Shown: positions 3,055 to 54,942, counted from the first letter of the stretch. The stretch is DNA of 64,000 nt from Patescibacteria group bacterium (GCA_041660165.1 JBAZWW010000001.1:105035-169034), one strand, 5' to 3'. Program-made: numbers and translations. Notes: a model not told the origin generated them from the letters alone.

Positions 3055-3120
3055 GTTCTTAGACCCTGACGTGAGGAAGCCCGTCCGACCGGATCGTCCG
3101 GGCGGGGGTCTAGAGGTGGA
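3055..3120. repeat. Short hairpin unit GACCCTGACGTGAGGAAG..GGTCTAGAGGTGG with an internal palindromic insertion
   Basis: The same unit recurs at about 23149, 23563 (inverted) and 26030. Confidence 0.5.
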
Positions 3121-3123
3121 CGC

Positions 3124-4902
3124 TTATGTATTTTTTTGCGTCTCCTGATACTTCTCCCACATTGTCTGGAATCTTTTCGAGTTTCTCATTAGCTCGTCGA
3201 GCGATCCCGATGTGATGATTCGTCCCTCGTCAAAATAGTAAATAACGTCAAACAGGTGAAGGAGGTGCAAGCGGTGAACGGAGGAGATGATGGCCTTATT
3301 CTTAAATTCTTTAAAAATATTTTCGTAAATGGCGGATTCGTTTTGGAGATCGACACTGCTGGTCGGCTCATCGAGCAAGACAATCGACTTGTCAGTACAG
3401 GCGAGTAATCCGCGAGCCAGCGCCAGGCGTTGTTTTTCGCCTCCGCTCAAGTTCACGCCTTTTTCGACGATCGAGGAATCAAGTCCGTGGGGGAGACGCT
3501 CGACTACATCCGTAAACCTGGCCATGTCCGTGTACTTGGTGATTGTTGAAGCCTTGTGCTCCACGCCCATCGTAATGTTTTCCCGAATAGTCGTAGCGAA
3601 AATCTCCGGATCCTGCGGGATTAGGGCAATCTGCGCGCTCATGGCGTCTAGTCCGTGCTTGAGCGGTTTGCCGTCAAGGATTACTCGAACATTCTTCGGT
3701 TCATACAGTCCTCGCAAAACTTTCAGCATGGTGGTCTTTCCGCTTCCGCTCTCGCCAATGAAGGCAATACGCGCTCCTCGACGAATAGAGATCGAGACAT
3801 CTTCAAGGTGAAGATCAGCGCCGGTTTCTGGATGATATGAGAAGGAGAGCTGGTTGATGTCCAGTTCCTTCCAGTTTGGTTTTGATGAAAGAAGGTTGAG
3901 ATTTTTCTTGGTGCGGAATTCGTCTGAAAGCTCCTCGGCATTTAAGACAGCCGAGCGTTGCTTAACCATGTCGCCGTACATGTAGGTGAAGTTGAAGAAG
4001 ACATCCGTGGCCCGCTGAACATAGGTATAGAGGAGATAGACCGCGCCAAGCGAGACGGCCAGGCCAAGCTGAACATTATGGGTGAAGTAAATGGCCAGCA
4101 CAAAGAACATGGTGATGCCCGTGCACATGGCTACCAGAAACCACTTCACTTCATTTAGCGTGGTATTCTTCTTATAGAGCGGGAATGGCTGGAAGATTTT
4201 AGTTTCTATGGTTTTGGCAACGAGTTTTTCAATTCGCAAGACAATGACCGTGGTCACATTGCTGATGACGTCAAATACTTTTGCGGAATTGGAATTGTAC
4301 ATTCGGTTTAATTCCCGATATTGCGCAATCAGCCGTTTATCAAAGGTGAGAATGATAACTGCGCTGACGCCAGCCATGCCGGCCACAATGAGGCCCGCCC
4401 AAATATCAAAGTAAAGGAGAATGCCAAAGGTGAAGAGAAGCCGGGAAGCGCTTTCTACAAGTTTATAAGTATCCTCGGCAAAGTTGCCAAGCGCCGTGGA
4501 GCCTTTTTCGATTTTATCTATCGTGTCGCCGGAATGATGATCCGTGTGCCAGGACGCTGGCAGATCAAGGACGCCATTAACGAGGAACATTTTGAAGTTC
4601 GAGAAAGTCAAAAAAGAATTCTTTCTTTCTATCACTCTGGCTGGTCCGTGAAAAGCCCAGAAGGCCAGCTGGACGCCTACAAACGAGCTTGAGAGCAGGA
4701 TGATTGACGGCAGAGTTGCTTGAGTGACGCCTTGGAATTGAATGACGTCGAGAATTTTTGCAACAAAGAACGGCTCCAGCAAATAAACCGTGTTAGCCCC
4801 CAAGAACAAGACAAAATACAAAACAACCATTCGGCGGTTGCCGGCGGAATATTTCCACAAGCGTTTGAGCAAGAAGAGTACCGGGTTGTTATCCAGCTTC
4901 AT
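3124..4902 (-). CDS. ABC exporter, fused permease/ATPase (MsbA/ABCB-type)
   Basis: It has six N-terminal TM helices, then GESGSGKTT Walker A, LSGGEKQRLALAR signature and LLDEPTS Walker B. The start is moved to the MKLDNNP ATG at 4900-4902; the ORF track extends it to 5013. Confidence 0.85.
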   Translation of the reverse strand: MKLDNNPVLFLLKRLWKYSAGNRRMVVLYFVLFLGANTVYLLEPFFVAKILDVIQFQGVTQATLPSIILLSSSFVGVQLAFWAFHGPARVIERKNSFLTFSNFKMFLVNGVLDLPASWHTDHHSGDTIDKIEKGSTALGNFAEDTYKLVESASRLLFTFGILLYFDIWAGLIVAGMAGVSAVIILTFDKRLIAQYRELNRMYNSNSAKVFDVISNVTTVIVLRIEKLVAKTIETKIFQPFPLYKKNTTLNEVKWFLVAMCTGITMFFVLAIYFTHNVQLGLAVSLGAVYLLYTYVQRATDVFFNFTYMYGDMVKQRSAVLNAEELSDEFRTKKNLNLLSSKPNWKELDINQLSFSYHPETGADLHLEDVSISIRRGARIAFIGESGSGKTTMLKVLRGLYEPKNVRVILDGKPLKHGLDAMSAQIALIPQDPEIFATTIRENITMGVEHKASTITKYTDMARFTDVVERLPHGLDSSIVEKGVNLSGGEKQRLALARGLLACTDKSIVLLDEPTSSVDLQNESAIYENIFKEFKNKAIISSVHRLHLLHLFDVIYYFDEGRIITSGSLDELMRNSKRFQTMWEKYQETQKNT

Positions 4903-4989
4903 AAGGCACCAGCAATTATAACAGGATAGCGCTCCTGTTCCCGATGTTGTAAACTTCCACCCATAATGCAACGCACTTCTTTCATGCGT

Positions 4990-6285
4990 ATGGCCAAGAT
5001 TGCCAAGATTCATGGGCGGGAAATTCTTGATTCGCGCGGGAATCCTACGGTTGAGGTTGATCTGTGGCTTGATAGCGGGCAGATGGTTAGGGCGAGTGTC
5101 CCCTCGGGCGCATCCACCGGTAAGCGCGAGGCGATTGAACTGCGCGATGGCGACAAGAAGCGCTATGCAGGCAAAGGCGTCTTAAACGCGGTGAATAACG
5201 TGAATACTGAACTGGCCAAACTGGTAGTCGGCCAGGATCCGGATGAACTTGAGAAGATCGATCAGATGATGATTGAGCTTGATGGCACTGAGAACAAAGG
5301 CCGGCTGGGGGCGAATGCAATTCTCGGCGTCTCCATCGCCGTCTTGAAGGCGGGCGCGGCTGCTGCGAATCTCCCCATCTACGAATACATCAAACGAAAG
5401 TATCGCCCAGAGACGCCGTACATCATGCCGGTGCCCATGTTCAACATTTTGAACGGTGGATTGCACGCCGAGGGCTCGTCCGATTTTCAGGAGTACAAGA
5501 TCGCTGCCATTGGTGCGCCGAGTTTGACGGAGGCTGTGCGCTGGAGTGCGGAGGTGTTCCACGTCCTTAAAAAGATTCTGCACGAGCGCGGTTTGACTAC
5601 AACGGTGGGGGATGAGGGGGGCTTTGCCCCGGCGCTCAGCTCGAACGACGAGTACCCACAGATCATTGTTGAAGCGATCAAGAAGGCGGGATACGAACCA
5701 GGTAAGGATATTTATCTGGCTCTCGATCCAGCGAGTAGTGCCTTCTATGACAATGGCAAGTACAATTTGAAGCGTGATGGTCGAGTACTAAACTCGGACG
5801 AAATGATTGCTTTCTGGGTTGATTGGGTGAACAAGTATCCGATTATCTCCATTGAGGATGGGCTAGGCGAGGATGACTGGGAGAACTGGAAGAAACTTTA
5901 CGAGACCCTGGGTCACAAGATCCAGATCATGGGTGATGATTTGCTCGTCACAAATCCCAAGATCATCAAGAAAGCAATAGCTGACAAGCTGGCTAACTCG
6001 GCCTTGATCAAGATCAACCAGATCGGTTCGATGTCTGAGACGATTGAAGCGGTGAACCTGGCCCACGCTGCGGGCTGGTCGGCCGTCGTGTCTCACCGAT
6101 CGGGGGAGACCGAAGACACAACTATCGCTGACCTGGTGGTCGGCCTTAGTACGGGCATGATCAAGACAGGCTCGGCCAGCCGGTCAGAACGCGTGGCCAA
6201 GTACAACCAGCTGATGCGCATTGAGGAAGAACTGGGGGAGAAGGCTGTGTACCCCGGCATGAAGGCGTTTGCGAATATTAAGTAG
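4990..6285 (+). CDS. eno: Enolase (phosphopyruvate hydratase)
   Basis: MAKIAKIHGREILDSRGNPTVEVD and SHRSGETEDTTIADL motifs identify it. The start is trimmed to the MAKI ATG. Confidence 0.95.
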   Translation: MAKIAKIHGREILDSRGNPTVEVDLWLDSGQMVRASVPSGASTGKREAIELRDGDKKRYAGKGVLNAVNNVNTELAKLVVGQDPDELEKIDQMMIELDGTENKGRLGANAILGVSIAVLKAGAAAANLPIYEYIKRKYRPETPYIMPVPMFNILNGGLHAEGSSDFQEYKIAAIGAPSLTEAVRWSAEVFHVLKKILHERGLTTTVGDEGGFAPALSSNDEYPQIIVEAIKKAGYEPGKDIYLALDPASSAFYDNGKYNLKRDGRVLNSDEMIAFWVDWVNKYPIISIEDGLGEDDWENWKKLYETLGHKIQIMGDDLLVTNPKIIKKAIADKLANSALIKINQIGSMSETIEAVNLAHAAGWSAVVSHRSGETEDTTIADLVVGLSTGMIKTGSASRSERVAKYNQLMRIEEELGEKAVYPGMKAFANIK

Positions 6286-6425: not shown

Positions 6426-6441
6426 GCGAATAATACATAAG

Positions 6442-6474
6442 ACACTTATTATATAAGAGACTTATATAATTTCT
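6442..6474. promoter_or_regulatory. Conserved AT-rich palindrome block (TTATATAAG-aga-CTTATATAA) upstream of the helicase gene
   Basis: The arms are a perfect 9-bp inverted repeat. A near-identical 33-bp block occurs at 26683-26716. Confidence 0.4.
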
Positions 6475-6494
6475 GCTTGGGACGCGAATTTTCT

Positions 6495-8171
6495 ATGACC
6501 CAAAATGAAGCCCTTAACATCCTCAAAACCGGCGCGAATGTGTTCCTGACGGGGGAGCCAGGGGCGGGCAAGAGCCACACTGTGCGCGAGTACGTGCACT
6601 ATTTGCGCTCGCATGGCGTAGAGCCGGCCATTACGGCAAGTACCGGCATCGCCGCCACGCACATTGGCGGGCTCACCATTCATTCCTGGAGCGGGATTGG
6701 CATCAAGAAGGCGCTGACGAAGCACGAGATTCGAGAAATCGGAACTAACGATCGTGTAGCGAGCCGGATGCGGAAGACGCATGTGCTGATTATTGACGAG
6801 GTGTCCATGCTCGACGCCAACACGCTCGGCCTGGTTGACGCGGTGTTGCGAGGAGTGAAAGAGAATCACGCGGCCTTTGGTGGGATGCAGGTTATCTTTG
6901 TGGGCGACTTTTTCCAGCTTCCGCCAGTGTCCAGGCACGGCGAGGAGCCGAGCGAATTCTCTTTTACTGCAGACGCGTGGCACTCGGCCAAGCCGGTGGT
7001 TTGCTATTTGAGCGAGCAACACCGTCAAGAGGATCCCGAATTTCTCGAGGTCCTGTCCTCGATGCGTACCGGCAGTGTCCCCGCCGAGCACAAAGCTCGT
7101 CTGCTCGCTCGCCAACAAACGGGTGTTTCAGAATCCGATATCACGAAACTGTTCCCGCACAACGCCGACGTGGATAGGATCAACGCGAATGAGCTCTCGA
7201 AAATCCCGGGGGAGGCCAAATCTTTTAAGATGAATGACAACGGGAATCCAAAAATGTGCGAGGCTTTGCGCCGGGGCTGTCTCTCGCCCGAGAGGCTCGA
7301 CTTGAAGAAAGGCGCGCGAGTCATGTTTACTCGAAACAATTTCGAGGAGGGTTTTGTGAACGGCACAACGGGGGATGTAGAAGGCTTCTCGCCAGATACA
7401 GGATTCCCCGTAGTAATAACTCGATCCGGTCGCCGAATCGAAGTAGAACCGGCGCGCTGGGCGATTGAGGCGGATTCAAGAACGCTTGCGTCAATTTCGC
7501 AGATTCCTTTACGGCTGGCGTGGGCCATGACCGTGCATAAGAGCCAAGGCATGAGTCTCGACGCGGCCTTCGTTGATTTGTCCGGCGCGTTTGCGTACGG
7601 GCAGGGGTATGTGGCGCTGTCGAGAGTTCGTACGCTCGCCGGTCTGTTCCTTGGCGGTCTCAATGAGCGCGCGCTCGAGGTTGATCAAACGGTGCTTGCC
7701 GAAGACGGCGAGTTTAGAGCGCGCTCGGAAAATGCTCGAACAACCTACGGCGAACTTGATTCCGCAAAACTTGAACAGAAGCACAAAGGATTTTTGGTAG
7801 CCTGCGGGGGGAGAGTAACGGCGCGGACACCTATCGAGATGCTCGCGGCCCCGCTCACTCGCACACCAAGGAGCAAAGAACCACGATACGAACAAACGCT
7901 CGCGTTATTACTCGAAGGAAAAAGCGTGAGCGAGGTTGCCACCGAGCGGAGCCGAAAAGACGGGACAATTATCGAACACCTCGAAAAGTTAAAAGAACTC
8001 GGCAAACTGCCAAAGGAAAAATTGGAACACCTGCAGAGCAAAAAAATGTTCGCAGACATTCACTCCGCGTTCAAGGCCAAGAAGACTCAACAGCTGAGCC
8101 CGATCTTTGCGCACCTAAAGGGCAAGTACTCGTACGATGACATCAGGCTCGCGCGCATTTTCTACCCGTAG
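6495..8171 (+). CDS. PIF1/RecD-like ATP-dependent DNA helicase (AAA_30 family) with C-terminal HTH-like region
   Basis: LTGEPGAGKSH Walker A, LIIDEVSM Walker B and the FFQLPPV motif identify it. The ORF track begins at a TTG (6477), so the ATG at 6495 is preferred. Confidence 0.75.
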   Translation: MTQNEALNILKTGANVFLTGEPGAGKSHTVREYVHYLRSHGVEPAITASTGIAATHIGGLTIHSWSGIGIKKALTKHEIREIGTNDRVASRMRKTHVLIIDEVSMLDANTLGLVDAVLRGVKENHAAFGGMQVIFVGDFFQLPPVSRHGEEPSEFSFTADAWHSAKPVVCYLSEQHRQEDPEFLEVLSSMRTGSVPAEHKARLLARQQTGVSESDITKLFPHNADVDRINANELSKIPGEAKSFKMNDNGNPKMCEALRRGCLSPERLDLKKGARVMFTRNNFEEGFVNGTTGDVEGFSPDTGFPVVITRSGRRIEVEPARWAIEADSRTLASISQIPLRLAWAMTVHKSQGMSLDAAFVDLSGAFAYGQGYVALSRVRTLAGLFLGGLNERALEVDQTVLAEDGEFRARSENARTTYGELDSAKLEQKHKGFLVACGGRVTARTPIEMLAAPLTRTPRSKEPRYEQTLALLLEGKSVSEVATERSRKDGTIIEHLEKLKELGKLPKEKLEHLQSKKMFADIHSAFKAKKTQQLSPIFAHLKGKYSYDDIRLARIFYP

Positions 8172-9270: not shown

Positions 9271-9924
9271 ATGTCTTCTATGATTCATGGTCTTCGAATA
9301 GTTTTTATAGCCTTGATCGGAACAGCCCTGGCAGGATTTCTTTTGCTGTTTTCGGTTATTATGATCGAGGGGAAACGGCATGATGTGAAGGCTGATCTTC
9401 AGGCCATTGCTCCGCAGAATGTAGCGATTGTTTTTGGCGCAGGAATCAAACGAGACAATACGCCATCTGATGCCTTAGAAGATAGGTTGATCGTAGCGGC
9501 GAGGCTCTATCATGCTGGTCAGGTCAAAACGATTCTTGTTTCCGGCGACAACCGATTTAAAAATTATTCCGAGCCGGACGTGATGCGGGATGCGCTTGTT
9601 GAGCGCATGGGCGTAGATGCAAAAGACATTCAGGCTGATTACGCCGGACGCCGGACGTATGACACTTGTATTCGAGCAAAAAAACTTTGGGGAGTTGATC
9701 ACGCCATTCTAATTTCACAAGATTTTCATCTTCCGCGAGCCATCTGGACCTGTGATAAATTAGGTATTGAAAGTTCCGGCGCTTCAGCCTCACTCCGTCC
9801 CTACATGTTTGCCGTGGATTATCGTGCTCGAGAAATTCTGGCCGATCTGAACGCCTTTATTAACGTCTATATTTGGCATCCTGGGTACGTGGGAGGGGAG
9901 TTTGTGACGGATATTGATCCGTAA
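9271..9924 (+). CDS. sanA: SanA/YdcF (DUF218) family envelope protein
   Basis: N-terminal TM segment, then IVFGAGI...LVSGDNRFKNYSEPDVMRD...ILISQDFHLPRA, characteristic of SanA/DUF218. Confidence 0.75.
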   Translation: MSSMIHGLRIVFIALIGTALAGFLLLFSVIMIEGKRHDVKADLQAIAPQNVAIVFGAGIKRDNTPSDALEDRLIVAARLYHAGQVKTILVSGDNRFKNYSEPDVMRDALVERMGVDAKDIQADYAGRRTYDTCIRAKKLWGVDHAILISQDFHLPRAIWTCDKLGIESSGASASLRPYMFAVDYRAREILADLNAFINVYIWHPGYVGGEFVTDIDP

Positions 9925-9983
9925 TTGAAACACCCCGCCGTTAGCGACCCATGGGGGCGTTTCATCGGCGGGATGACGGCGGG
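9925..9983 (+). repeat. Island boundary repeat, copy 1
   Basis: TTGAAACACCCCGCCGTTAGCGACCCATGGGGGCGTTTC starts directly at the sanA stop. It differs by 2 mismatches in 39 nt from the copy at 12768. Confidence 0.6.
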
Positions 9984-10958: not shown

Positions 10959-11110
10959 GGGGTCTCCATATCGAACCATTCAGTATAGCAAAAAAATACG
11001 AATTTGTCAATAATTCCGCTAACATTAGATAGAAAAACTACCAAGAGCTCCTCAGCGAACGCTAGTCAAAGACCATTGAAAAACAAGTGCCGGTCTTTCA
11101 ATACGCATAA

Positions 11111-11182
11111 TGTACATTTTGTTCAAATTGAAACACCCCGCTCGTCAGCTGGCCCGGAGGGGTGTTTCGCTGTGGCGGGGCG
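11111..11182 (+). repeat. Island repeat, copy 2
   Basis: TGTACATTTTGTTCAAATTGAAACACCCCGC-loop-GGGGTGTTTCGCTGTGGCGGGGCG. Confidence 0.6.
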
Positions 11183-12039: not shown

Positions 12040-12095
12040 TACATAAGATGCTTATGTATTTTTTGAATGGGTAATTTGTACAAATTGTACAAATT
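12040..12095. promoter_or_regulatory. Promoter/operator region of higBA with two palindromes
   Basis: TACATAAG-atg-CTTATGTA (12040-12058) and AATTTGTACAAATTGTACAAATT (12073-12095) lie 55-110 bp upstream of higB. Confidence 0.4.
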
Positions 12096-12125
12096 GAAAC
12101 ACCCCGTCGATAGCAGCCATCATTC
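12073..12125 (+). repeat. Island repeat, copy 3 (left half only)
   Basis: AATTTGTACAAATTGTACAAATTGAAACACCCCGTCG... has no matching right arm. Confidence 0.4.
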
Positions 12126-12168: not shown

Positions 12169-12453
12169 ATGATTCAATCGTTCGCCGATGCAGATACGAA
12201 GCATATTTTCCAACGGGATCTCATTAAGAGGTTTCCAACGTGGCTGCAGAAGATTGCGTTAAGAAAACTTCTGCATATTCACGCCGCTCACCGGCTTGAT
12301 GATCTGAAAGTCCCGCCGGGTAATCGTCTTGAGAAACTCAAAGGCAAGGACGGAGACAAGCACAGCATCCGAGTAAACGATCAATGGCGGTTGCGCTTCA
12401 AATGGAAAGATAGCGACGCCTATGAAGTTTGTTTAATCGATTACCACGACTAA
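12169..12453 (+). CDS. higB: HigB toxin (RelE/ParE superfamily)
   Basis: MIQSF....PPGNRLEKLKGKDGDKHSIRVNDQWRLRFKWKDSDAYEVCLIDYHD matches the HigB killer-protein consensus. The ORF-track GTG start at 12148 is trimmed to the ATG. Confidence 0.8.
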   Translation: MIQSFADADTKHIFQRDLIKRFPTWLQKIALRKLLHIHAAHRLDDLKVPPGNRLEKLKGKDGDKHSIRVNDQWRLRFKWKDSDAYEVCLIDYHD

Positions 12454-12454
12454 T

Positions 12455-12751
12455 ATGAAAAAACAAAAACCCATTCATCCTGGCGAAATCCTCCTTGAAG
12501 ATTTTCTTCTGGCGATGGAGATCACTCAGTATCGTTTGGCAAAGGATATTAGCGTGCCTGCTCGCCGAATCAACGAAATCGTTCACGGCAACCGCGCCAT
12601 TAGCCCGGACACCGCGCTTCGACTGGCAAAGTATTTTGGCACCAGTCCCGAATTCTGGATGAATCTCCAGGCTCATTATGATCTTGAGCTACTCAATGAG
12701 AGTTGGTCGAAAACCATCGAGAAACAGGTGCGAGTATTTCAACCGGCGTAA
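12455..12751 (+). CDS. higA: HigA antitoxin (XRE-type HTH)
   Basis: IHPGEILLEDFL...ITQYRLAKDISVPARRINEIVHGNRAISPDTALRLAKYFGTSPEFWMNLQ is the canonical HigA sequence. The gene begins 2 nt after the higB stop. Confidence 0.85.
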   Translation: MKKQKPIHPGEILLEDFLLAMEITQYRLAKDISVPARRINEIVHGNRAISPDTALRLAKYFGTSPEFWMNLQAHYDLELLNESWSKTIEKQVRVFQPA

Positions 12752-12767
12752 AGTACAATTTGTACAA

Positions 12768-12822
12768 AATGAAACACCCCGCCGTTAGCGACCCATGGGG
12801 GTGTTTCGCTGTGGCGGGGTGA
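12768..12822 (+). repeat. Island boundary repeat, copy 4
   Basis: ATGAAACACCCCGCCGTTAGCGACCCATGGGGGTGTTTCGCTGTGGCGGGGTG, preceded by AATTTGTACAAAA. Confidence 0.6.
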
Positions 12823-16455: not shown

Positions 16456-16616
16456 TCCTATCCCGTCCCGACCCTGAGTTCGACGAAGGGGAGGGATAGA
16501 ATTGGATGCCATTGGGAATCCTCGTCATCCTTGCTACCCCTCCTGTCGTCGGGGTGGGAACCACCGCAACGGCCAATCGGATCCTTCATCGCTGAAAGCT
16601 CCTCAGGATGACTGAA
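16456..16616. repeat. Dispersed nested-palindrome repeat, copy P (long form)
   Basis: It contains ...GGGAGGGATAGAATTGG...CCCCTCCTGTCGTCGGGGTGGGAACC and ends ...GCTGAAAGCTCCTCAGGATGAC. Confidence 0.55.
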
Positions 16617-21190: not shown

Positions 21191-22420
21191 ATGAAAAAAA
21201 TCAAGCAATTTATCCCGCTTATAGTTGGCGTCCTGGTCATCCTTATCCTCATTGGCGTGCGCGCTTGGGGCCTGTCGCATCTGCCAAAGGATGGACGCTG
21301 GCCAAACGTGGCCGGGGGCATGTATGACAAGCCGGTCATGAAAAACGGCGTGGAGTATTATGTTCCACCGGATGAGATTTATGAGAATGGCTTGGGCAAG
21401 AACGGTCTTCCTGCACTCAACTCCGCTACGTATGTAACGGTGGCGGTGGCTGATGACGTGCTCGCAGACGACGTTGAGGGCATTGACGTTGCGGTGAACG
21501 GCAAACACCGCTTCTATTCATTTCAAATTTTGAACTGGCACGGGTTGGTGAATGACCGCTTTGGCGACAAAGATTTGCTCGTATCGTACTCCTCGCTCTG
21601 CGGGAGCGCGGTGGTTTATGACCGGGTAGTTGAAGACGGCATCACTAGAACCTTTGGCGACAACGGCCAGGTCTATAACAACTGCCCGGTGCTGTACGAT
21701 GACAAGTCAGAAGAGTTGTGGGATCAGGCTAACGGCCTGCTTATTTCCGGCCATGAGCACAGCATGCGCCTGGCCCGTTACCCTAGCGCGGTGCTGACCT
21801 GGTCTGCTTGGAAGGACGCTAACCCGAATGGGGAAGTGCTCTCAACTGAGACAGGTTTCACGCGCGATTACCGCCGTCATCCGTACGGGAATTACGACAA
21901 GAATGCGTCGCTCTTTTTCCCGACCAATAAAACGGATGCCCGCTTGGCTGTGAAGGATTTTGTGGATGATTATGAACTGGATTACTACGGTGAGGTTCAT
22001 GTGGGAGCCAGCGCTAAATTCCTGTCCTTCGCTAAAGAGCCAAACTACACCATGGATTCCTTCGGACCAGGCGGTTCATTTGTGGTGGACTTCACCGCCT
22101 TTGTTGATGCGAACAATAAAGCTCATCTCTTCAGCCGTTCTGTGGACGGCCAGCTGTTGACCTTTGTTCGCGAGAACAATGAGATCAAGGATAAGGAAAC
22201 GGATTCCCGCTGGACGGCCAATGGCCTTTGCATTAAAGGTAAAATGAAAGGCAAGAAATTGGACGAGATGAAGCCAACCGGGCGCTACTTCGCCTTTGCA
22301 TATGTATCGCACTTCCCAAAAGCTACTTTGCTTGGCGCGGACGCGTATGATCTTGAGCAGGCTAAGGCTGAAACTCCTAAGGCTGTAAATCCGCCAACTG
22401 AAATCAATGTCACACCCTAA
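21191..22420 (+). CDS. DUF3179-family protein with N-terminal TM anchor
   Basis: LVSYSSLCGSAVVYDR...GQVYNNCPVLYDDKSEELWDQ matches the DUF3179 YCPLC...LYRSNLVMYDR..SLWSQ pattern. Confidence 0.6.
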   Translation: MKKIKQFIPLIVGVLVILILIGVRAWGLSHLPKDGRWPNVAGGMYDKPVMKNGVEYYVPPDEIYENGLGKNGLPALNSATYVTVAVADDVLADDVEGIDVAVNGKHRFYSFQILNWHGLVNDRFGDKDLLVSYSSLCGSAVVYDRVVEDGITRTFGDNGQVYNNCPVLYDDKSEELWDQANGLLISGHEHSMRLARYPSAVLTWSAWKDANPNGEVLSTETGFTRDYRRHPYGNYDKNASLFFPTNKTDARLAVKDFVDDYELDYYGEVHVGASAKFLSFAKEPNYTMDSFGPGGSFVVDFTAFVDANNKAHLFSRSVDGQLLTFVRENNEIKDKETDSRWTANGLCIKGKMKGKKLDEMKPTGRYFAFAYVSHFPKATLLGADAYDLEQAKAETPKAVNPPTEINVTP

Positions 22421-23078
22421 AGGCCAGCTCTTCATTGTTGCCACGCCCATCGGCAACCTGGGTGATATTTCAGCGCGCGCTAAGGAGATTTTGTCGAGCG
22501 TAGATCTCGTGCTGTGCGAGGATACAAGAGTGACGAGCAAGCTCTTGGCAGCACTCGAGATTACGCCGAGCACGATGAGCTTTCACGAGCACACTGATCC
22601 TCTGAAACGAAAACAAATTGTCGATAGACTCGTTAACGGATCGAGAATCGCCCTCGTCACTGACGCTGGCACTCCGGCCATCTCTGACCCCGGCGGTTTC
22701 CTCGTTAAGGATGCCGTTGACGCGGACATCGAGGTTACGCCCATCCCCGGGCCAAGTGCCGTGATCGCCGCGCTTTCGGTTTCTGGCTTCGCGATCGACA
22801 GATTTACTTTTCTAGGTTTCCCCCCGCACAAAAAAGGGCGCAATGGCTTCTTTGCTGACATCGCCGGCCTTGAGCACGCGGTGGTATTGTATGAATCGAC
22901 TCACCGCATCACGAAAACGCTCGAAGCCCTCAAAGAACTCGGCCGACCGCTCGTAGTTTGTCGAGAGCTCACGAAGATGCATGAGACAATCTATCGAGGG
23001 AGCGCGGAGGAGATTCTGAAAAAACTTGATGAGACGAGTACAAAGGGCGAGTTCGTGATCGTGGTTGGGAGGGTGTGA
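22407..23078 (+). CDS. rsmI: 16S rRNA (cytidine1402-2'-O)-methyltransferase
   Basis: LFIVATPIGNLGDIS...VLCEDTRVT matches the tetrapyrrole-methylase-like RsmI fold. Confidence 0.9.
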   Translation: MSHPKGQLFIVATPIGNLGDISARAKEILSSVDLVLCEDTRVTSKLLAALEITPSTMSFHEHTDPLKRKQIVDRLVNGSRIALVTDAGTPAISDPGGFLVKDAVDADIEVTPIPGPSAVIAALSVSGFAIDRFTFLGFPPHKKGRNGFFADIAGLEHAVVLYESTHRITKTLEALKELGRPLVVCRELTKMHETIYRGSAEEILKKLDETSTKGEFVIVVGRV

Positions 23079-23084
23079 CGCCGA

Positions 23085-23185
23085 GTCATCCTGAGGAGCT
23101 TTCAGCGACGAAGGAGCTGATTGGTCGCTCAGATTGGACCGACGTATTCGACCCTGACGTAAGGAAGGGTCTAGAGGTGGCGGAT
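23085..23185. repeat. Dispersed repeat copy C, ending in the short hairpin unit GACCCTGACGTAAGGAAGGGTCTAGAGGTGGCGG
   Basis: It starts with the GTCATCCTGAGGAGCTTTCAGCGA terminal inverted repeat shared with copy P. Confidence 0.55.
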
Positions 23186-23198
23186 TGGATAAAGAATT

Positions 23199-23561
23199 AT
23201 GAAATATCGCGGGCTACTACTTAAAGAGGGGCTAACCGACGAGACGATTCTCAATGATCTTGTTATTACAAAAACCGATTATTGGGATGTAAAAAATTCC
23301 TCGGCAGATCAGCCCAAGCAATGGACCGCTGTTTCATTTGAAGTCGAAGGAGATCGAGCTGACGTCATTGCGGAAAACCTAAGCAATGTTCTGAAGCCAA
23401 CGGGCTGGTACCTAAACATGAATAGCAATGATACGGTTATGGTTGTATTTCCGGGGAAGGTTTTTAAATATCTTAAGGGGGATAGCGCAAAACGTGCTGA
23501 AGCTATAGAATTCGGAAGGAGCATCGAGATTCCGGATAGTCAGCTCGATTGGGAGGAATAA
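23199..23561 (+). CDS. Hypothetical 120-aa protein flanked by 34-bp inverted repeats
   Basis: Clean ORF of ordinary composition. No family recognised. Confidence 0.5.
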   Translation: MKYRGLLLKEGLTDETILNDLVITKTDYWDVKNSSADQPKQWTAVSFEVEGDRADVIAENLSNVLKPTGWYLNMNSNDTVMVVFPGKVFKYLKGDSAKRAEAIEFGRSIEIPDSQLDWEE

Positions 23562-23562
23562 C

Positions 23563-23598
23563 CACCGCCTCTAGACCCTTCCTCACGTCAGGGTCTGG
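23563..23598. repeat. Inverted copy of the short hairpin unit (CCACCGCCTCTAGACCCTTCCTCACGTCAGGGTC)
   Basis: It is the reverse complement of 23149-23182, with 2-3 mismatches. Confidence 0.55.
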
Positions 23599-23627: not shown

Positions 23628-25067
23628 ATGCCCAATTATTACATCACCACAACGCTTCCGTACGTTAACGCTGATCCGCATATTGGCCATGCGATTGAGT
23701 TCATTCAGGCGGATGCGATTGCTCGATATCGACGGTCACTCGGGGACGAGGTCATTTTTAATACCGGTACAGACGAGCACGGGCAGAAGATTTATAAGAA
23801 GGCGCTTGAGCTTGGCGTCGAACCGAAAATCTATTGCGACATGTTCGCGGTGAAATTTGAGGCACTCCGCGAGTCTCTGAATTTATCGTACACGAACTTC
23901 ATTCGCACTACTGACCCGAAGCATATTGCGGCGGCTCAGGAATTCTGGAAGCGTTGTGATGCGTCCGGCGATATCTATAAGAAGCAATATCAAACGAAGT
24001 ATTGCGTCGGTTGCGAGCTCGAAAAGACGGACTCGGATCTCGTTGACGGTAAGTGTCCGGTGCACCCAAAGATGGAGATTGAAATGCGTGATGAGGAAAA
24101 CTACTTCTTCCGCTGGTCAAAGTATGAGAAAGCAATTATCGACTATTACGCTGAGCATCCCGATTTTGTTGTTCCCAAAGAAAAGTTCAATGAAATTAAA
24201 AACTTTGTAAAAGGCGGGCTGAACGATTTTAGTATCTCGCGCCTCAAAGAAAAGATGCCGTGGGGCATTGCAGTGCCCGGTGATGAAGATCATGTCATGT
24301 ACGTGTGGTTTGATGCGCTCGTCAATTACATTTCCACGCTCGACTGGCCAGCCAAGGGAAACTTTGAAAAGTTTTGGCCTGGCGTTCAAGTGGCCGGCAT
24401 AGACAATCTGAGACAGCAGAGCGCCATGTGGCAGGGGATGCTTTTCTCGGCCGGTTTGCCAATGAGCAAACAGATTTTTATTCACTCGTTCATCACCGTG
24501 AACGGCCAGAAGATGAGCAAGTCGCTTGGCAACGTGATTAACCCGAAGGATCTCGTTGAGAAATACGGAACTGATGCGGTTCGTTATTTCTTGTTGCGCG
24601 AAATGCCGTACGGGACTGACGGGGACTATTCTGAGATGCGGATGGAGGAACGATACAACGAACTCGCAAATAACCTTGGCAACCTGGCCGGCCGGGTAGC
24701 TGCTATGGCGAACAAATATTTTGACGGCATGGTCGGCGAGGTACCGTTCGGCCATACTGATCTCGACGCTTCACTCGACGCCTCCATGCGCGAGTACAAT
24801 TTCAAGCAATATATCGAGCATGTGTGGACGGTGGTTGATTCTGCGAATCATAAAATCGACGTTGAAGCTCCCTTCAGACTCGTCAAAACAGATCCCGACG
24901 GCGCTAAGAAATCCCTGGCCGAGCTGGCGTCCATGATCCGCTGGATCGCCACGTCTCTTGCCCCGATTATTCCTGGCACCTCAGCAGAGATCCTAAAGAG
25001 ATATACTAGTGAGCGGTTGATTCACGGAGAGCCGTTGTTTCCGAAGAGGGACGCGAAGTCATCCTGA
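23628..25067 (+). CDS. metG: Methionyl-tRNA synthetase (short form)
   Basis: PYVNADPHIGHA (HIGH motif), KMSKSLGN (KMSKS motif) and a CxxC...CP zinc knuckle. Confidence 0.9.
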   Translation: MPNYYITTTLPYVNADPHIGHAIEFIQADAIARYRRSLGDEVIFNTGTDEHGQKIYKKALELGVEPKIYCDMFAVKFEALRESLNLSYTNFIRTTDPKHIAAAQEFWKRCDASGDIYKKQYQTKYCVGCELEKTDSDLVDGKCPVHPKMEIEMRDEENYFFRWSKYEKAIIDYYAEHPDFVVPKEKFNEIKNFVKGGLNDFSISRLKEKMPWGIAVPGDEDHVMYVWFDALVNYISTLDWPAKGNFEKFWPGVQVAGIDNLRQQSAMWQGMLFSAGLPMSKQIFIHSFITVNGQKMSKSLGNVINPKDLVEKYGTDAVRYFLLREMPYGTDGDYSEMRMEERYNELANNLGNLAGRVAAMANKYFDGMVGEVPFGHTDLDASLDASMREYNFKQYIEHVWTVVDSANHKIDVEAPFRLVKTDPDGAKKSLAELASMIRWIATSLAPIIPGTSAEILKRYTSERLIHGEPLFPKRDAKSS

Positions 25068-25794: not shown

Positions 25795-26670
25795 ATGAAA
25801 TTTATAGACACTCACTGTCACGTTCACTTCCAGGCCTACAAGGATGACATGGATGAGGTTGTTAAACGCTCGCTTGGAAAAGGCGTGGGCATGATTACGG
25901 TTGGGACGCAATCGACCACGAGTAAGAACGGCATCGCACTCGCCGAAAGGTATGACGGCGTGTGGTGTACCATCGGTCTCCACCCGAACCACCTGCATGC
26001 GCAAGAATTCCTCGATGAGGATGAGCTACCGGCTTTAGACCCCGACGCCAGGAGGGGCCTAGAGGTGGTTGCTACGAAAATCAAAACTCGCGCTGAAAAA
26101 TTTGACGCCGAGTATTACAAACCGCTCGTGACTCATCCGAAGGTTGTAGCTATCGGCGAGTTTGGACTCGACTATTTCCGCGTTCCGCCGAGCGTGAACC
26201 TTGAACAATTAAAATTCGATCAAGCCAGTGCTGTGCGCGAGCAGTTGCGCTTTGCCTCGCAATTCAACAAACCGATTGTTATCCATTGCCGTGACGCCCA
26301 CGCTGATCAGTGGCAACTGCTGAAGGAGGAAATTGACAGAGGTGGGATCGCCAAGAGGGGAGTAATCCACTGCTTCACGGGTACCGCCGAGGAAGCCTCG
26401 AAATATCGAGAGCTCGGTTTCCTTGTGTCATTTACCGGCATCGTTACCTTTGGCAAAAATGTTATGGCCACGGCCCGTGAGGTCCCGCTTGACCAAATCC
26501 TGATTGAAACTGATTCGCCATATCTCACCCCAGCGCCGAACAGAGGCAAGAGAAATGAACCGAGCAATGTGGTCTATGTTGCCGAGACGATTGCCAAGCT
26601 GAAGGGAATCTCAGTGGACGAGGTGGCGCGAGTAACGACGGAGAATGCGATGAAGCTTTTCGGGCTGTAG
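25795..26670 (+). CDS. tatD: TatD-family metal-dependent hydrolase
   Basis: FIDTHCHVHF metal-binding start and a conserved ...IETDSPYL block. The start is trimmed to MKFIDTHCH. Confidence 0.85.
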   Translation: MKFIDTHCHVHFQAYKDDMDEVVKRSLGKGVGMITVGTQSTTSKNGIALAERYDGVWCTIGLHPNHLHAQEFLDEDELPALDPDARRGLEVVATKIKTRAEKFDAEYYKPLVTHPKVVAIGEFGLDYFRVPPSVNLEQLKFDQASAVREQLRFASQFNKPIVIHCRDAHADQWQLLKEEIDRGGIAKRGVIHCFTGTAEEASKYRELGFLVSFTGIVTFGKNVMATAREVPLDQILIETDSPYLTPAPNRGKRNEPSNVVYVAETIAKLKGISVDEVARVTTENAMKLFGL

Positions 26671-26682
26671 AAGAATATATAA

Positions 26683-26716
26683 AACACTGATTATATAAGA
26701 TACTTATATAATTTCC
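26683..26716. promoter_or_regulatory. Second copy of the conserved AT-rich palindrome block (TTATATAAG-ata-CTTATATAA)
   Basis: Near-identical to 6442-6474, including flanks ACACT.ATTATATAAGA.ACTTATATAATTTC. Confidence 0.4.
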
Positions 26717-26744
26717 GCTCTCCTATTGTTTCCTCCCCAAAATC

Positions 26745-34559: not shown

Positions 34560-34886
34560 TCACGTGGCGTTCGCCCGGACAAGTTCGGCCACGAGTCTTG
34601 GTTTGAGCCACGGACTCGGGGTAATGAACTTGCTGATGTCATCGGGCAAAGGATCGCGGGCGTAGTCTGACAGCGGCAGGATGCGCGATTTCCTCGGGAC
34701 GGAACCGCGTTCCTCAGCGAGCTGGACGAAGATGTCTCCAGCTTCATCTACGCCGTAGTAGACCAAGAACGTGAATTTGGCGTCCATGTCTCCAGTCAGG
34801 TCCATTGCCTTCACGGTATCCACGCACACATGATGTGCGTCGGTCATCAGTTCGGGATACATGCCCGATTCTAGCGTATCTCCCAT
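34560..34886 (-). CDS. Hypothetical 108-aa protein, GC-rich
   Basis: AGGGAGG lies 7 nt upstream of the MGDTLESG start. It is divergent from uvrD. Confidence 0.5.
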   Translation of the reverse strand: MGDTLESGMYPELMTDAHHVCVDTVKAMDLTGDMDAKFTFLVYYGVDEAGDIFVQLAEERGSVPRKSRILPLSDYARDPLPDDISKFITPSPWLKPRLVAELVRANAT

Positions 34887-34950
34887 GAAACCTCCCTTAG
34901 GCAGAGCCCGTACTGACAATATTCCTTCTTCACACTACAATAGCCCGGCT

Positions 34951-37900
34951 ATGCCTGCAAACCCGCTTCTTGAAGATTTGAACCCTGAACAGCTGATGGC
35001 CGTGACCCACGGGGAAGGCCCGCTTATGATTATTGCTGGCGCGGGGACGGGAAAAACTACTGTGGTAACTAAGCGTATCGCGTGGTTGATCGAGCAGAAA
35101 TTGGCCGAGCCGAATGAGATCCTGGCGCTGACGTTTACGGATAAGGCGGCCAACGAAATGGAGGAACGCGTTGATCGATTATTACCGATGGGCTATCTCG
35201 ATCTTAGTATTTCGACATTCCATTCGTTCTGCGAGAAAGTTCTGCGCGAGCATGGAATTCACATTGGCATCCCCTCGGACTTTAAGCTGTATACCGAGGT
35301 TGATTGCTGGCTTTTGATGCGCCGAAATATTGATAGGTTCGAGCTCGACTATTTTAAGCCGAGGGGATCACCGACCAAGTTCCTTAGACAATTGCTTCAG
35401 CATTTTTCTCGCGCCAAGGATGAGGGAATCACGCCGGAGAAGTATCTGCTCGCCGTCGAGGAACTCGAATCAGTCATCCTGAGCGATGTTGTCATCTCGA
35501 GCGGAGCGAGAGATCTGATTGGCCAATCAAATCCCTCCTCACGTCGGGATGACAATGCGGTGAGCGACGAAGATCGGCTCGAACTTCAAAAGTGGCAGGA
35601 ACTTTCAAGTGCGTACGCCATGTATGAAACGTTGCTGTCTGAAAAGCACGCCATTGATTTTGGCGGGTTATTATTGCTGACGCTCGAGTTATTCAAAACT
35701 CGGCCGAACGTACTCGAGGAGTATAAGAAGCGGTTTAAATATATTATCGTCGACGAATTCCAGGACACGAATAGCATTCAGAATGAGCTCGTCAAAATCC
35801 TTGTTCACGAGCCGAGGAACATTACTGTCGTGGGCGACGACGACCAGGCCATTTATAAGTTTCGAGGCGCCGCTCTGGCAAACATTCTTGAGTTCAGAAC
35901 AGATTTTCCTGATGCATCTCGCGTGGTGCTGACTCGCAATTACCGAAGTGGAGCAACGATCCTCGACGCCGCTCACAAACTCATCCAGACAAACAACCCG
36001 CACCGGCTCGAAGCGAGCGAGGGACTCTCGAAAAAGCTTCAATCACAAACTGAGTCTGAGGGACTTGTCCGCCATTTGCACTGCGCCACTGCCGTTGAGG
36101 AGGTTGAGCAAGTTATTAAAGAAATCATCACGAAGCACGAGAGCGGGGAAGCGGAGTGGAGCGACTTTGCGATTCTGGCCAGATCGAATGACGCCGTTGA
36201 TCCGTTCCTTGAGGCCCTTGAACGCGCCGGCGTCCCGTATCATTTCGTGGCGCTCTCGGGTTTGTACACGAAGCCGATTATTCTTGATGCCATGGCGTAC
36301 ATGCGCGCGGTCTGCGAACCGTACCACTCGCCGGCGATGTATCGAATTTTGAGCCACCCCAGGCTCGGTCTCACTGAGGGTGACTTGTCCGAGCTGATGC
36401 GCTACGTTCGCCGAAAGTCTGGCGGAGCGATTATTGACGGCATGCGTTCACTCACTCAAGCGATTGGCATGTCGCTCGACGGACGCAATCGAGCCATGCA
36501 GATTACGACTATTATTGAGCAGTTGCGTGAGAAGGCCAAACGCCTACCAGTCACCGAGCTCTTCGTCTCGGTTCTCAAAGACACCGGTTTGCTTGGCGAC
36601 TTGAAAGTTCTCGCCGAACGAGACCAGCAGGAAAACTTCCGTCATCTCGAGGGCTTCCTGGCGCGTCTTAAGCGTTATGTAATCGCGAGTCCGGACAACA
36701 AGCTCCTCCCTGGTTTTCTCGAAGAGTTTGATGCCGAACGCGAGGCAGGGGAGGCTGGCGGATTACGGCCAGACGCCGAGGAAGGGCCGGACGTGGTGAA
36801 CGTCATGACGATTCACGCCGCTAAGGGGCTTGAGTTCAAATATGTGTTTGTCGTTAACATGATCGAGCAGAGATTTCCCTCGGTCTCACGCTCCGACCAA
36901 CTACCACTCCCGCCTGCGCTTGTTCGTAAGGTTGACGCTGCACTGGACGATCATGTAGCTGAGGAACGCCGGTTATTTTATGTGGCCATGACGCGAGCGA
37001 AAGAAGGTTTGTATCTTTGCTCGGCCGAGGATTACGGAGGTACCCGAAAACGCAAGCCGTCGAGATTCCTGGCCGAGCTCGGTTATCAAGCTCCGGTAGT
37101 CGAAAAGAAAAAAACGATCACGACCGATGATCTCCTCGATGAGCGCGCCGGCGGTAGGGACGAGGATCGAGCCATCCCCTCGTTGGCGCTCCCCACGAAA
37201 TTCTCCTTTTCGCAAATCGCCGCCTTTGGCAATTGTCCTCTGCAATACAAATACGCGCACATTCTCAAGATTCCCACCTTTGGCCGGCACCAGTTTAGCT
37301 TTGGCCAGAGCATGCACTTGACCCTTGAAAAGTTTGTAAAACGACTACTCGAGGCCGAGGGCAACACGCAAGTTTCATTGTTCGGTGCACCGCCGACTGC
37401 TCCCGTGCTACCGAGCGAACGAGAACTCCTCGAAATGTATTCAGCTTCATTTATTGACGAGTGGTACCCGGATTCAGCTACTCGTGAAAAGTATCGAGAA
37501 GAGGGCGTGAAGGCACTCAAGGAGTTTCACCGAAAAGTGGCCGAGAACACACCCAAACCACTCCTTCTCGAAGCTGGCTTCACTTTGAAGATCGGCGATA
37601 TCTTGATGAAGGGTCGGATCGACAGAATTGACTCGGTTGACGGCGGTGTCGAGATCATTGACTACAAGACTGGTCGAGCGAAAGAAAAACTCGAATGGGA
37701 CGACCGCCGACAGTTGTTGCTGTACGCGCTCGCCGGCGAGCAATGTTTTAATCCTCCACTCATCGTGAAAGCACTGACATATTATTACGTAGAGACAAAC
37801 CAGACCATGAGTTTTGCGCCAACAGAAAAGGACAAAGAAAAACTACTCGATGAGATTCAAGAGACAGTTGGTGGTATTCGAACGAGCTCGTTCGAGGCCA

Positions 37901-37965
37901 AGCCCGGACCGTTTACGTGCAAGTACTGTGATTTTAAAGATATTTGTCCGAAAGCTGAGCTGTAA
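34951..37965 (+). CDS. uvrD: UvrD/PcrA-type superfamily-1 DNA helicase with a C-terminal PD-(D/E)xK-like extension
   Basis: AGAGTGKTTV Walker A, VDEFQDTN motif II, and a downstream TIHAAKGLEFKYVFVV block. The start is at the MPANPLLEDLNPEQ ATG. Confidence 0.85.
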   Translation: MPANPLLEDLNPEQLMAVTHGEGPLMIIAGAGTGKTTVVTKRIAWLIEQKLAEPNEILALTFTDKAANEMEERVDRLLPMGYLDLSISTFHSFCEKVLREHGIHIGIPSDFKLYTEVDCWLLMRRNIDRFELDYFKPRGSPTKFLRQLLQHFSRAKDEGITPEKYLLAVEELESVILSDVVISSGARDLIGQSNPSSRRDDNAVSDEDRLELQKWQELSSAYAMYETLLSEKHAIDFGGLLLLTLELFKTRPNVLEEYKKRFKYIIVDEFQDTNSIQNELVKILVHEPRNITVVGDDDQAIYKFRGAALANILEFRTDFPDASRVVLTRNYRSGATILDAAHKLIQTNNPHRLEASEGLSKKLQSQTESEGLVRHLHCATAVEEVEQVIKEIITKHESGEAEWSDFAILARSNDAVDPFLEALERAGVPYHFVALSGLYTKPIILDAMAYMRAVCEPYHSPAMYRILSHPRLGLTEGDLSELMRYVRRKSGGAIIDGMRSLTQAIGMSLDGRNRAMQITTIIEQLREKAKRLPVTELFVSVLKDTGLLGDLKVLAERDQQENFRHLEGFLARLKRYVIASPDNKLLPGFLEEFDAEREAGEAGGLRPDAEEGPDVVNVMTIHAAKGLEFKYVFVVNMIEQRFPSVSRSDQLPLPPALVRKVDAALDDHVAEERRLFYVAMTRAKEGLYLCSAEDYGGTRKRKPSRFLAELGYQAPVVEKKKTITTDDLLDERAGGRDEDRAIPSLALPTKFSFSQIAAFGNCPLQYKYAHILKIPTFGRHQFSFGQSMHLTLEKFVKRLLEAEGNTQVSLFGAPPTAPVLPSERELLEMYSASFIDEWYPDSATREKYREEGVKALKEFHRKVAENTPKPLLLEAGFTLKIGDILMKGRIDRIDSVDGGVEIIDYKTGRAKEKLEWDDRRQLLLYALAGEQCFNPPLIVKALTYYYVETNQTMSFAPTEKDKEKLLDEIQETVGGIRTSSFEAKPGPFTCKYCDFKDICPKAEL
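35472..35555. repeat. Dispersed repeat copy K, inserted in-frame inside uvrD
   Basis: GTCATCCTGAGCGATGTTGTCATCTCGAGCGGAGCGAGAGATCTGATTGGCCAATCAAATCCCTCCTCACGTCGGGATGAC encodes ...SVILSDVVISSGARDLIGQSNPSSRRDD... with no stop codon. Confidence 0.6.
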
Positions 37966-54903: not shown

Positions 54904-54942
54904 TTCAGATCCCTCGCTCTGCTCGGGATGACAAACGCGTCC
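54899..54942. repeat. Half copy of the dispersed repeat (inverted), copy O
   Basis: CCAATTCAGATCCCTCGCTCTGCTCGGGATGAC is the reverse complement of the left half of copy D. Confidence 0.5.

Follow-up and report, generated by a model that had tools for sequence, protein, structure and literature searches.

A low-GC gene bracketed by inverted copies of a dispersed hairpin repeat between rsmI and metG in a Patescibacteria genome

Background

Repetitive extragenic palindromes (REPs) are short palindromic sequences that occur in high copy number, mostly outside genes and downstream of coding regions (PMC3733652; PMC3116915). Most are arranged as inverted dimers, both homodimers and heterodimers, with spacers of 20-100 bp; DNA has been found inserted between the partners of a dimer, and there are intragenic, in-frame copies, some of them in repair genes (PMC3733652). 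In a REPtron, REPs flank the gene for a REP-associated tyrosine transposase (RAYT) (PMC3733652). We analyzed a related arrangement in a 64-kb stretch of DNA from a Patescibacteria group bacterium (GCA_041660165.1, JBAZWW010000001.1:105035-169034), which we call the window. In it, an open reading frame (ORF) of 120 codons, ORF120, lies in the spacer between the genes rsmI and metG and is bracketed by two inverted copies of a hairpin repeat that is found elsewhere in the window.

A preliminary description had taken this segment of about 450 bp as a candidate mini-transposon carrying an orphan gene as its passenger. With confidence somewhat above even, we favor a different reading, in which a small foreign gene is nested in a hairpin pair like those of REPs and bacterial interspersed mosaic elements (BIMEs), and no transposon with private ends is involved. 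We found no evidence that the segment ever moved as a transposon. The earlier proposal is supported in part: the segment is an insertion, the gene is foreign in composition, its homologues in distant genomes lie elsewhere and lack the repeats, and it lies inside a canonical convergent pair. The arms, by contrast, are not specific to the element, and we found no target-site duplication beside them, no transposase among the small ORFs of the window and no second site in the cluster database searched. Our literature search returned no description of such repeats in Patescibacteria (the candidate phyla radiation, CPR) and no association of GIY-YIG nucleases with REPs.

The arms are members of a dispersed hairpin family

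A repeat search places the arms at 23150-23183 and 23562-23595. Each is 34 nt long, 31 of the 34 positions (91%) are complementary, and 378 nt lie between them; dinucleotide shuffles of the window give an expectation of 0 matches to their 22-mer core. The 34-bp inverted repeats first reported around the ORF are therefore real, with coordinates that were 1-3 nt off, and their location between rsmI and metG is borne out by the Pfam matches of the neighboring genes. The features of the region are as follows.

22407-23078, plus strand: rsmI-like methyltransferase gene (PF00590), the upstream neighbor, which marks the insertion site and adjoins metG in relatives
23084-23127, plus strand: dispersed-repeat unit of another subfamily (GTCATCCTGAG...CGAAGGAGCTGATTGG), 44 nt, 91% identical to 16570-16613 in inverse orientation
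23150-23183, plus strand: left arm, a forward unit of the subfamily with the TCTAGAGGTGG tail, from the inverted-repeat and hairpin searches
23199-23561, plus strand: ORF120, 120 aa, ATG to TAA, low in GC, supported by homologues and selection on its codons (dN/dS)
23562-23598, minus strand: right arm, a reverse unit that shares the subfamily of the left arm, from the inverted-repeat and hairpin searches
23628-25067, plus strand: metG (PF09334), the downstream neighbor, which marks the insertion site and adjoins rsmI in relatives

Each arm is itself a hairpin, as had been proposed. The left arm (GACCCTGACGTAAGGAAGGGTCTAGAGGTGGCGG) folds at 23150-23171 into a 6-bp stem, GACCCT/AGGGTC, with a 10-nt loop, GACGTAAGGA, followed by the tail TAGAGGTGGCGG; the subfamily tail runs on to ATTGG at 23188, and the arm ends 15 nt 5' of the ORF120 start. 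The right-arm hairpin at 23571-23598 reads CTAGACCCT / TCCTCACGTC / AGGGTCTGG, with a stem that extends to 9 bp, and its tail, CCACCGCC, directly contacts the ORF120 stop codon. From the 9-bp hairpin to the metG ATG the distance is 29 nt; our survey of unit positions, which took the stem as 7 bp, has it at 31 nt. On the other side, the unit at 23084-23127 begins 6 nt after the rsmI stop codon (9 nt in the same survey). It had been described as fused to the left arm; it is a neighbor, 22 nt upstream.

We surveyed the window with a strict unit pattern that combined a stem of 5 bp or more, a loop starting and ending with GA, and an inner closing pair. This identified 26 units in 64 kb, against about 1 (0-3) in shuffled sequence. 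The subfamily to which the arms belong has two further copies, at 3058-3122 and 26035-26070 (inside tatD), so that two of its four members in the window flank ORF120, and about 20 related units lie elsewhere, for a total of about 24. Further copies of the 34-mer thus do exist, and they identify the arms as members of a dispersed family and not as private ends.

A typical unit has a G+C-rich stem of 5-9 bp, a loop of 10-12 nt and then a tail, which in the arm subfamily is TCTAGAGGTGG..ATTGG. We aligned 23 units drawn from the window and five other loci. Positions G10, A11, G13, A16, G18 and A19 are invariant, and only two apical nucleotides vary freely; judged from this pattern, the 10-nt loop reads as a structured one, made up of tandem G.A pairs and a single C-G pair, capped by GNNA. 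In the stem, C-G and U-A pairs replace each other by covariation, and at four of the nine pairs none of the 23 units has an unpaired cell. Covariation scores 0.29, compared with 0.14 for shuffles, and all slid registers score lower. No Rfam family reached its gathering score anywhere in the window. We rejected an intrinsic terminator, since there is no U-tract and the stems are followed by TAGAGG or TGGCCC.

This family resembles REPs, BIMEs and REPINs (pairs of REPs) in that it consists of covarying stem-loops in high copy number, lies 3' of genes, forms inverted dimers and has genome-specific variants. It lacks, however, the unpaired GTAG/CGTC end tag that is a criterion for REPs (PMC3733652): GACG (=CGTC) is found inside the structured loop, and GTAG occurs in one subfamily only, at the 3' edge of the stem and with the opposite polarity. 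The invariant G.A-paired loop, the Patescibacteria host and the splitting of this pair by a whole gene are further differences. Nor was a RAYT seen in the 64 kb examined, where PF01797 was not matched by any of the 28 ORFs of 80-270 aa that we compared with Pfam. The family behaves like REPs and BIMEs yet is without the defining tags and, in the sequence examined, without a RAYT; the nuclease associated with it, described below, may also be different.

The way the units are ordered around genes places ORF120 inside one of the pairs. The window contains eight convergent (tail-to-tail) pairs, with spacers of 16-51 nt and often made up of two different subfamilies. In all 10 clusters, the unit that comes first after a stop codon points forward and lies 9-22 nt from it, and the reverse unit stands 24-34 nt ahead of the next gene start. 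Both the forward unit 3' of rsmI and the reverse unit 5' of metG occupy these normal positions: the unit at 23084-23127 is an ordinary first unit after a stop codon, the distance from the right arm to metG fits the usual range, and the pair around ORF120 is convergent, as canonical pairs are. Only ORF120 has a forward unit before it and a reverse unit after it, and it therefore lies inside a pair, not between pairs. For comparison we used loci from other genomes, labeled L with a number. An ordinary pair of the arm subfamily, with a spacer of about 30 nt, is present in L058, which comes from the same metagenome as L001, one of the two other loci with ORF120 in this spacer; the metagenome pattern scan yielded 6 loci in all, too few for a spacing distribution.

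An obvious objection is that units are so common here that the bracket could have arisen piecemeal. ORF120 would have arrived by an unrelated route, solo units would have filled the spacers on both sides later, and their inversion would be a coincidence. Nearly all spacers between 20.5 and 26 kb do contain units, regardless of the gene, and solo units exist (at 3058, at 54909 and in tatD); in L056, moreover, a 582-aa gene is flanked by two units of the arm subfamily, in divergent orientation. But ORF120 is the one gene that breaks the forward-after-stop rule, which is what is expected inside a pair, this single inserted gene is flanked by half of the window's copies of the arm subfamily, and the stop codon abuts the truncated tail of a reverse unit in all three genomes that have the segment (the window, L001 and L049). 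We consider such independent colonization rather unlikely.

The arms follow the family consensus, not each other

Comparison with L001 and L049 shows how the arms have changed. In the window genome the loops are GTAA or GTGA, whereas the copies from the L001 organism (the left, right and tatD units of L001, and those of L056, L058 and L060) have GTTA or GTGA. Since the loop variants are genome-specific, each arm follows the consensus of the family and not its partner. The right arm of the window is 97% identical to the copy in L001 tatD and only about 87% identical to its own orthologue, and the left arm is as similar to a unit of another genome, in L055, as it is to the right arm. The 31/34 complementarity of the arms is high because both lie near the consensus.

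The hairpins persist while the arms drift apart. In both L001 and L049 the right hairpin carries the compensatory change CCCT/AGGG to CCCC/GGGG, and the left loop of L049 has gained a base pair (GAGCGTAGGCGA). Identity between the two arms of L049 has fallen to about 65% with two indels, by our own count, with each hairpin kept. These substitutions indicate that the local hairpins are what is maintained. Synonymous sites differ by 41-54% between the genomes compared, yet the interval from the left arm to the ATG is about 95% conserved between the window and L001, and the figure for the arms together with the 5' leader is 87-95%; the arms and leader are thus either constrained or homogenized. 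The unit next to the left arm behaves otherwise in L001, where its outer frame is kept and the inner hairpin has been swapped.

These data also bear on a selected RNA panhandle, in which the arms would pair over about 34 bp in an rsmI-ORF120-metG transcript and serve processing, for example by RNase III, or the insulation of ORF120 expression, like the stems of rRNA precursors. The predicted fold of the full transcript closes on the arms (z = -5.9 against shuffles), and the predicted duplexes of the three genomes amount to -65, -60 and -46 kcal/mol, compared with about -20 for two local hairpins. A common transcript is itself plausible: a scan for promoters and terminators predicted nothing at the arms or in the flanks of ORF120, so that ORF120 is probably co-transcribed with rsmI and metG. 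The arms are also conserved above the neutral level. However, any two inverted units of the family would form such a stem, the changes in L001 and L049 keep the local hairpins and weaken the pairing between the arms, and the loops have changed in line with the genome-wide consensus and not with the partner arm. Because G-U pairs still allow a duplex in L049, complementarity across the three orthologues does not separate long-range from local pairing; the one informative signal is the compensatory change in the local stems. We regard a selected panhandle as very unlikely.

An insertion between rsmI and metG

The order DUF3179-rsmI-metG-cvpA-tatD is widespread among the 41 rsmI loci from species-representative genomes that we compared, of which the nearest belong to metagenome-assembled genomes (MAGs) of Candidatus Uhrbacteria. 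The exact ORF120 protein is on record from a MAG labeled 'Patescibacteria group bacterium'. More than 20 relatives (L008-L011, L013, L016-L026, L031, L032, L035 and L047) have rsmI and metG adjacent, with a gap of 0-60 bp and no ORF120, which is the check that the preliminary description had suggested. ORF120 occurs in this spacer only in the window, in L001 (82% amino acid identity) and in L049 (72%). Judged by these alignments, the segment is an insertion into an ancestral rsmI-metG adjacency.

The unit of repeat, ORF120 and repeat occurs three times, always at the orthologous place upstream of metG and always in one orientation, at a synonymous divergence (dS) of about 0.95; no second location was found in a database of 5.8 billion clusters. 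Neither in the window (..CGTATTC| and |TGGCCCAG) nor in L001 (..GCATTC| and |TGGCCCAG) do the sequences just outside the arms include a direct repeat that could be a target-site duplication.

This constancy leaves little room for an inverton, that is, a segment flipped by recombination between its arms, for which the inverted repeats around a short segment would otherwise be suggestive. The orientation is the same in all three genomes, no promoter-like site lies in the segment or next to it, the 28 small window ORFs yielded no recombinase, and what the segment contains is a complete gene that reads in the same direction as the operon; we find this explanation hardly credible.

Other lineages have received other DNA at the same place. 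The spacer holds a GIY-YIG gene with its own repeats in L012 (4172-4925), L065 and L071, a NUDIX gene and an ORF6N-like gene in L014 (4157-5294), and two minus-strand ORFs in L015 (4178-5450). Because the insertions differ between lineages, the rsmI-metG spacer is a hot spot of insertion.

The metG gene of L001 (4429-5880) is a mosaic relative to that of the window (23628-25067): its first ~400 residues are 30-68% identical and its last ~80 are 92-98% identical. The rsmI and cvpA genes of L001 are 94-95% identical to those of the window, the metG genes of L049, L009 and L010 are 86-91% identical to the window's, and similarity between L001 and the window ends a few nucleotides past the right arm.

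ORF120 is a real gene of foreign composition

The enclosed gene had been called an orphan with no family. It has no family in Pfam, NCBIfam or the PDB sequences, nor do 52 members of its family, but it is no orphan. We found 11 close homologues with 50-82% identity over the full length, and a profile search returned 883 cluster representatives at E<=1e-3 (367 at E<=1e-10), including members from Microgenomates. Between ORF120 and its L001 orthologue, the ratio of nonsynonymous to synonymous divergence (dN/dS) is 0.09, with dS about 0.95. Residues G5, L6-8, K9, E10, W29, N33, Q38, P39, W42, Y91, D117, W118 and E120 are invariant. ORF120 is thus a real protein-coding gene of a widespread uncharacterized family.

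Its composition sets it apart from its neighbors. ORF120 has a GC content of 43.8% and a GC content at third codon positions (GC3) of 43%, compared with a GC3 of 60-63% in the flanking genes; across the window, L001 and L049 its GC3 is 0.43-0.50, against 0.59-0.66 in host genes. By this measure its composition is foreign. Its homologues in distant genomes lie at other sites and have no hairpins around them.

The AlphaFold (AF2) model of ORF120 (mean predicted local distance difference test, pLDDT, 93; predicted template modeling score, pTM, 0.84) is a small alpha/beta domain of ferredoxin-like type. The searches of profile and structure that had been proposed thus gave homologues and a model, but neither a curated family nor, in the fold searches with the model, a match at E<=1e-3; the structural matches were weak and ferredoxin-like only (PII, ACT and S6). 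In other genomes the domain is fused to GNAT (three cases), NUDIX (two), SnoaL, the nucleoside phosphorylase domain PNP_UDP_1 and an MFS transporter. In two AT-rich Patescibacteria (L003, 3015-4363; L005, 3035-4360) a homologue lies 10-18 bp downstream of a gene for an AlkA-like glycosylase (HhH-GPD) of 318-322 aa, a partner that has no homologue in the window. By analogy with these fusions and neighbors, a role connected with a small-molecule ligand, or with a damaged base or other nucleotide-related ligand, is suggested. ORF120 is without any histidine and is therefore not an HUH transposase; it matches neither PF01797 nor any other transposase domain in Pfam.

Similar brackets around GIY-YIG genes

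A related architecture is found in other genomes. In five independent contexts, a gene for a 98-aa GIY-YIG protein (PF01541) lies among units of the same hairpin superfamily, which stand 10-27 nt from the stop codon. In L069, a 27-nt inverted repeat of 96% identity (1457-1483 / 1808-1834) surrounds the gene (1501-1797). In L061 (1452-1840), the gene has a forward unit 25 nt before it and a reverse unit 17 nt after it, and L070, a relative of L061, has an empty site with neither unit nor gene. L055 (2160-2613) has a forward unit with the TCTAGAGGTGG tail 23 nt before the GIY-YIG ATG and a reverse unit 15 nt after the stop codon, together with a perfect 42-nt direct repeat around the module of forward unit and gene. 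The gene occupies the rsmI-metG spacer in L012 (4218-4879), L065 and L071, with reverse units on both sides, and in L072 it has forward units on both sides. With ORF120 included, four of six brackets are convergent, for which we calculate a p of about 0.04 against random orientation.

These brackets could mean that the inverted units around ORF120 are the ends of a non-autonomous element, which moved the gene in one piece and was mobilized in trans by the nuclease that spreads the family; the versions with GIY-YIG would then be the autonomous form, and the short pairs deletion derivatives. The observations that favor such a cargo cassette are specific. Sites empty of both gene and units exist at rsmI-metG and, for a GIY-YIG insertion, at MATCAP/cohesin; the GIY-YIG gene stands in a convergent bracket, 10-27 nt from the ends, in three of the five contexts; and ORF120 in the window and the GIY-YIG gene in L055 share the forward unit and tail in front of them (TCTAGAGGTGG.GGATTGG, with the ATG about 10 nt further on). 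ORF120 and the GIY-YIG genes each have less GC than the genomes that host them, and the rsmI-metG spacer has been struck independently by the GIY-YIG cluster of L012, L065 and L071 and by ORF120.

Against this stand the lack of a target-site duplication and the restriction of the segment to one orthologous site in three genomes that are about 1 apart in dS. Homologues of ORF120 elsewhere have no hairpins, the units that flank GIY-YIG genes vary in orientation (reverse/reverse in L012 and L071, forward/forward in L072), there is no GIY-YIG gene in the 64-kb window, and the arms of L049 have diverged from each other, with only the hairpin of each kept. On balance we hold the cargo cassette to be a lesser possibility, though one to be taken seriously.

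Described mobile elements offer partial parallels. Like a REPtron or TIRtron, the locus has a small gene tightly bracketed by inverted copies of a dispersed repeat of the genome itself; the difference is that ORF120 is not a Y1/HUH protein, and that related genomes bracket a GIY-YIG protein, which belongs to a different nuclease superfamily. The bracketed GIY-YIG genes do resemble a REPtron, and this analogy keeps alive the idea that the bracketed genes are or were mobile cassettes. Taken to its limit, the idea would make hairpin-bracketed cassettes a new REPtron-like mobile class in Patescibacteria, in which the 98-aa GIY-YIG protein nicks the G.A hairpins in place of a RAYT, the short pairs are non-autonomous, and the ORF120 segment is a cargo-carrying derivative and a true mini-transposon. 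We think this stronger form doubtful.

Miniature inverted-repeat transposable elements (MITEs) and composite transposons share with the segment the inverted repeats around a short stretch that is absent from the same site in relatives. Here, however, there is no target-site duplication and no autonomous insertion sequence with the same ends, the segment is single-copy and stably orthologous, and the supposed ends are abundant alone, as hairpins and short pairs. Like the gene of an integron cassette, ORF120 is short, promoterless and foreign in composition and has an imperfect palindrome immediately 3' of its stop codon, and the GIY-YIG genes of L055 and L012 are flanked by direct hairpin copies. 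The units around ORF120 are inverted instead, they form no array, units of the family are scattered after housekeeping genes, and no integrase was found among the 28 small window ORFs; we rejected this candidate for the orientation of its repeats.

How the gene may have come to lie inside a pair

In the nested-gene reading that we favor, a low-GC foreign ORF120 would have come between the two partners of a hairpin pair in the ancestor of the window, L001 and L049. It would have been inserted once in the rsmI-metG spacer and inherited vertically since. What is recognized and propagated would then be the hairpin unit and not the 450-bp segment, and the machinery that spreads the units would act in trans. 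The gene may either have entered the spacer of a dimer or have traveled a single time, flanked by two units. In the transcript, the forward hairpin that follows rsmI and the reverse one that precedes metG would have the same role as in other spacers, probably at mRNA ends or in processing.

Several points weigh against this account. We found no relative with an empty hairpin pair between rsmI and metG; the pair may have come first, or the gene and the units may have arrived together. The closest empty sites (L009 and L010) are too diverged for the spacers to be aligned and the boundaries of the insertion to be mapped on them. No RAYT, GIY-YIG or other transposase that could spread the units was seen in the 64-kb window. 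The tight bracket, together with the like architecture around GIY-YIG genes, also fits a mobile cassette, and the conservation of the arms could reflect selection on a long-range RNA stem, given a predicted duplex of -65 kcal/mol that is still -46 in L049.

Patescibacteria genomes are tiny and streamlined, yet here a visible share of the intergenic DNA, plus parts of two genes, consists of ordered hairpin repeats, and the ORF120 segment shows that a whole gene can sit between the partners of a repeat pair. If the association with GIY-YIG genes is causal, it would amount to a second, independent enzyme-repeat partnership of the REPtron type and to a route by which small accessory genes enter the rigid operons of these bacteria. 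If it is not, the segment would be an unremarkable example of DNA that has landed between the partners of a REP dimer.

Units inside units and inside genes

At 3058-3122, the spacer of the convergent genes 2481-3038 and 3124-5013 contains a copy of the arm subfamily whose stem holds a second hairpin (CCCGTCCGACCGGATCGTCCGGGCGG) in its 3' arm. Hairpin units seem able to insert into one another.

Two genes of the window contain units in frame. In tatD (25795-26670), the unit of the arm subfamily at 26035-26070 encodes DPDARRGLEVV in a loop of variable length. L001 tatD has the same in-frame unit at 6879-6918, with a compensatory change in the stem (DPDVRKGLEAV), and the tatD genes of L009 and L010 are 5 residues shorter at that loop and differ in sequence. 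A complete hairpin pair lies in frame at 35473-35560, where it reads VILSDVVISSGARDLIGQSNPSSRRDDNAV, inside a 1034-aa ORF (34861-37965) that is a putative UvrD/AddA-like helicase-nuclease, assigned by reading its motifs. The palindromic elements of Rickettsia are likewise repeats found in frame within genes, in variable surface loops, and the intragenic units of the window are alike in this respect. These units are, however, much shorter (about 35-90 nt) and unrelated in sequence.

Two other repeats were seen in the window. Copies of a family of the form ..TTGAAACACCCCGCCGTTAGCGACCCATGGGGG(C/T)GTTTC lie at 9923-9963, 11045-11141, 12062-12106 and 12686-12807, and copies of this type surround a HigB/HigA-like toxin-antitoxin pair (12169-12751) and small ORFs without a Pfam match. 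An AT-rich repeat of 50 nt occurs at 6428-6477 and 26670-26719 (88% identical), beside genes that are unrelated to each other, immediately 5' of the gene at 6495 in one case and immediately 3' of tatD in the other; the repeat could be a shared regulatory element.

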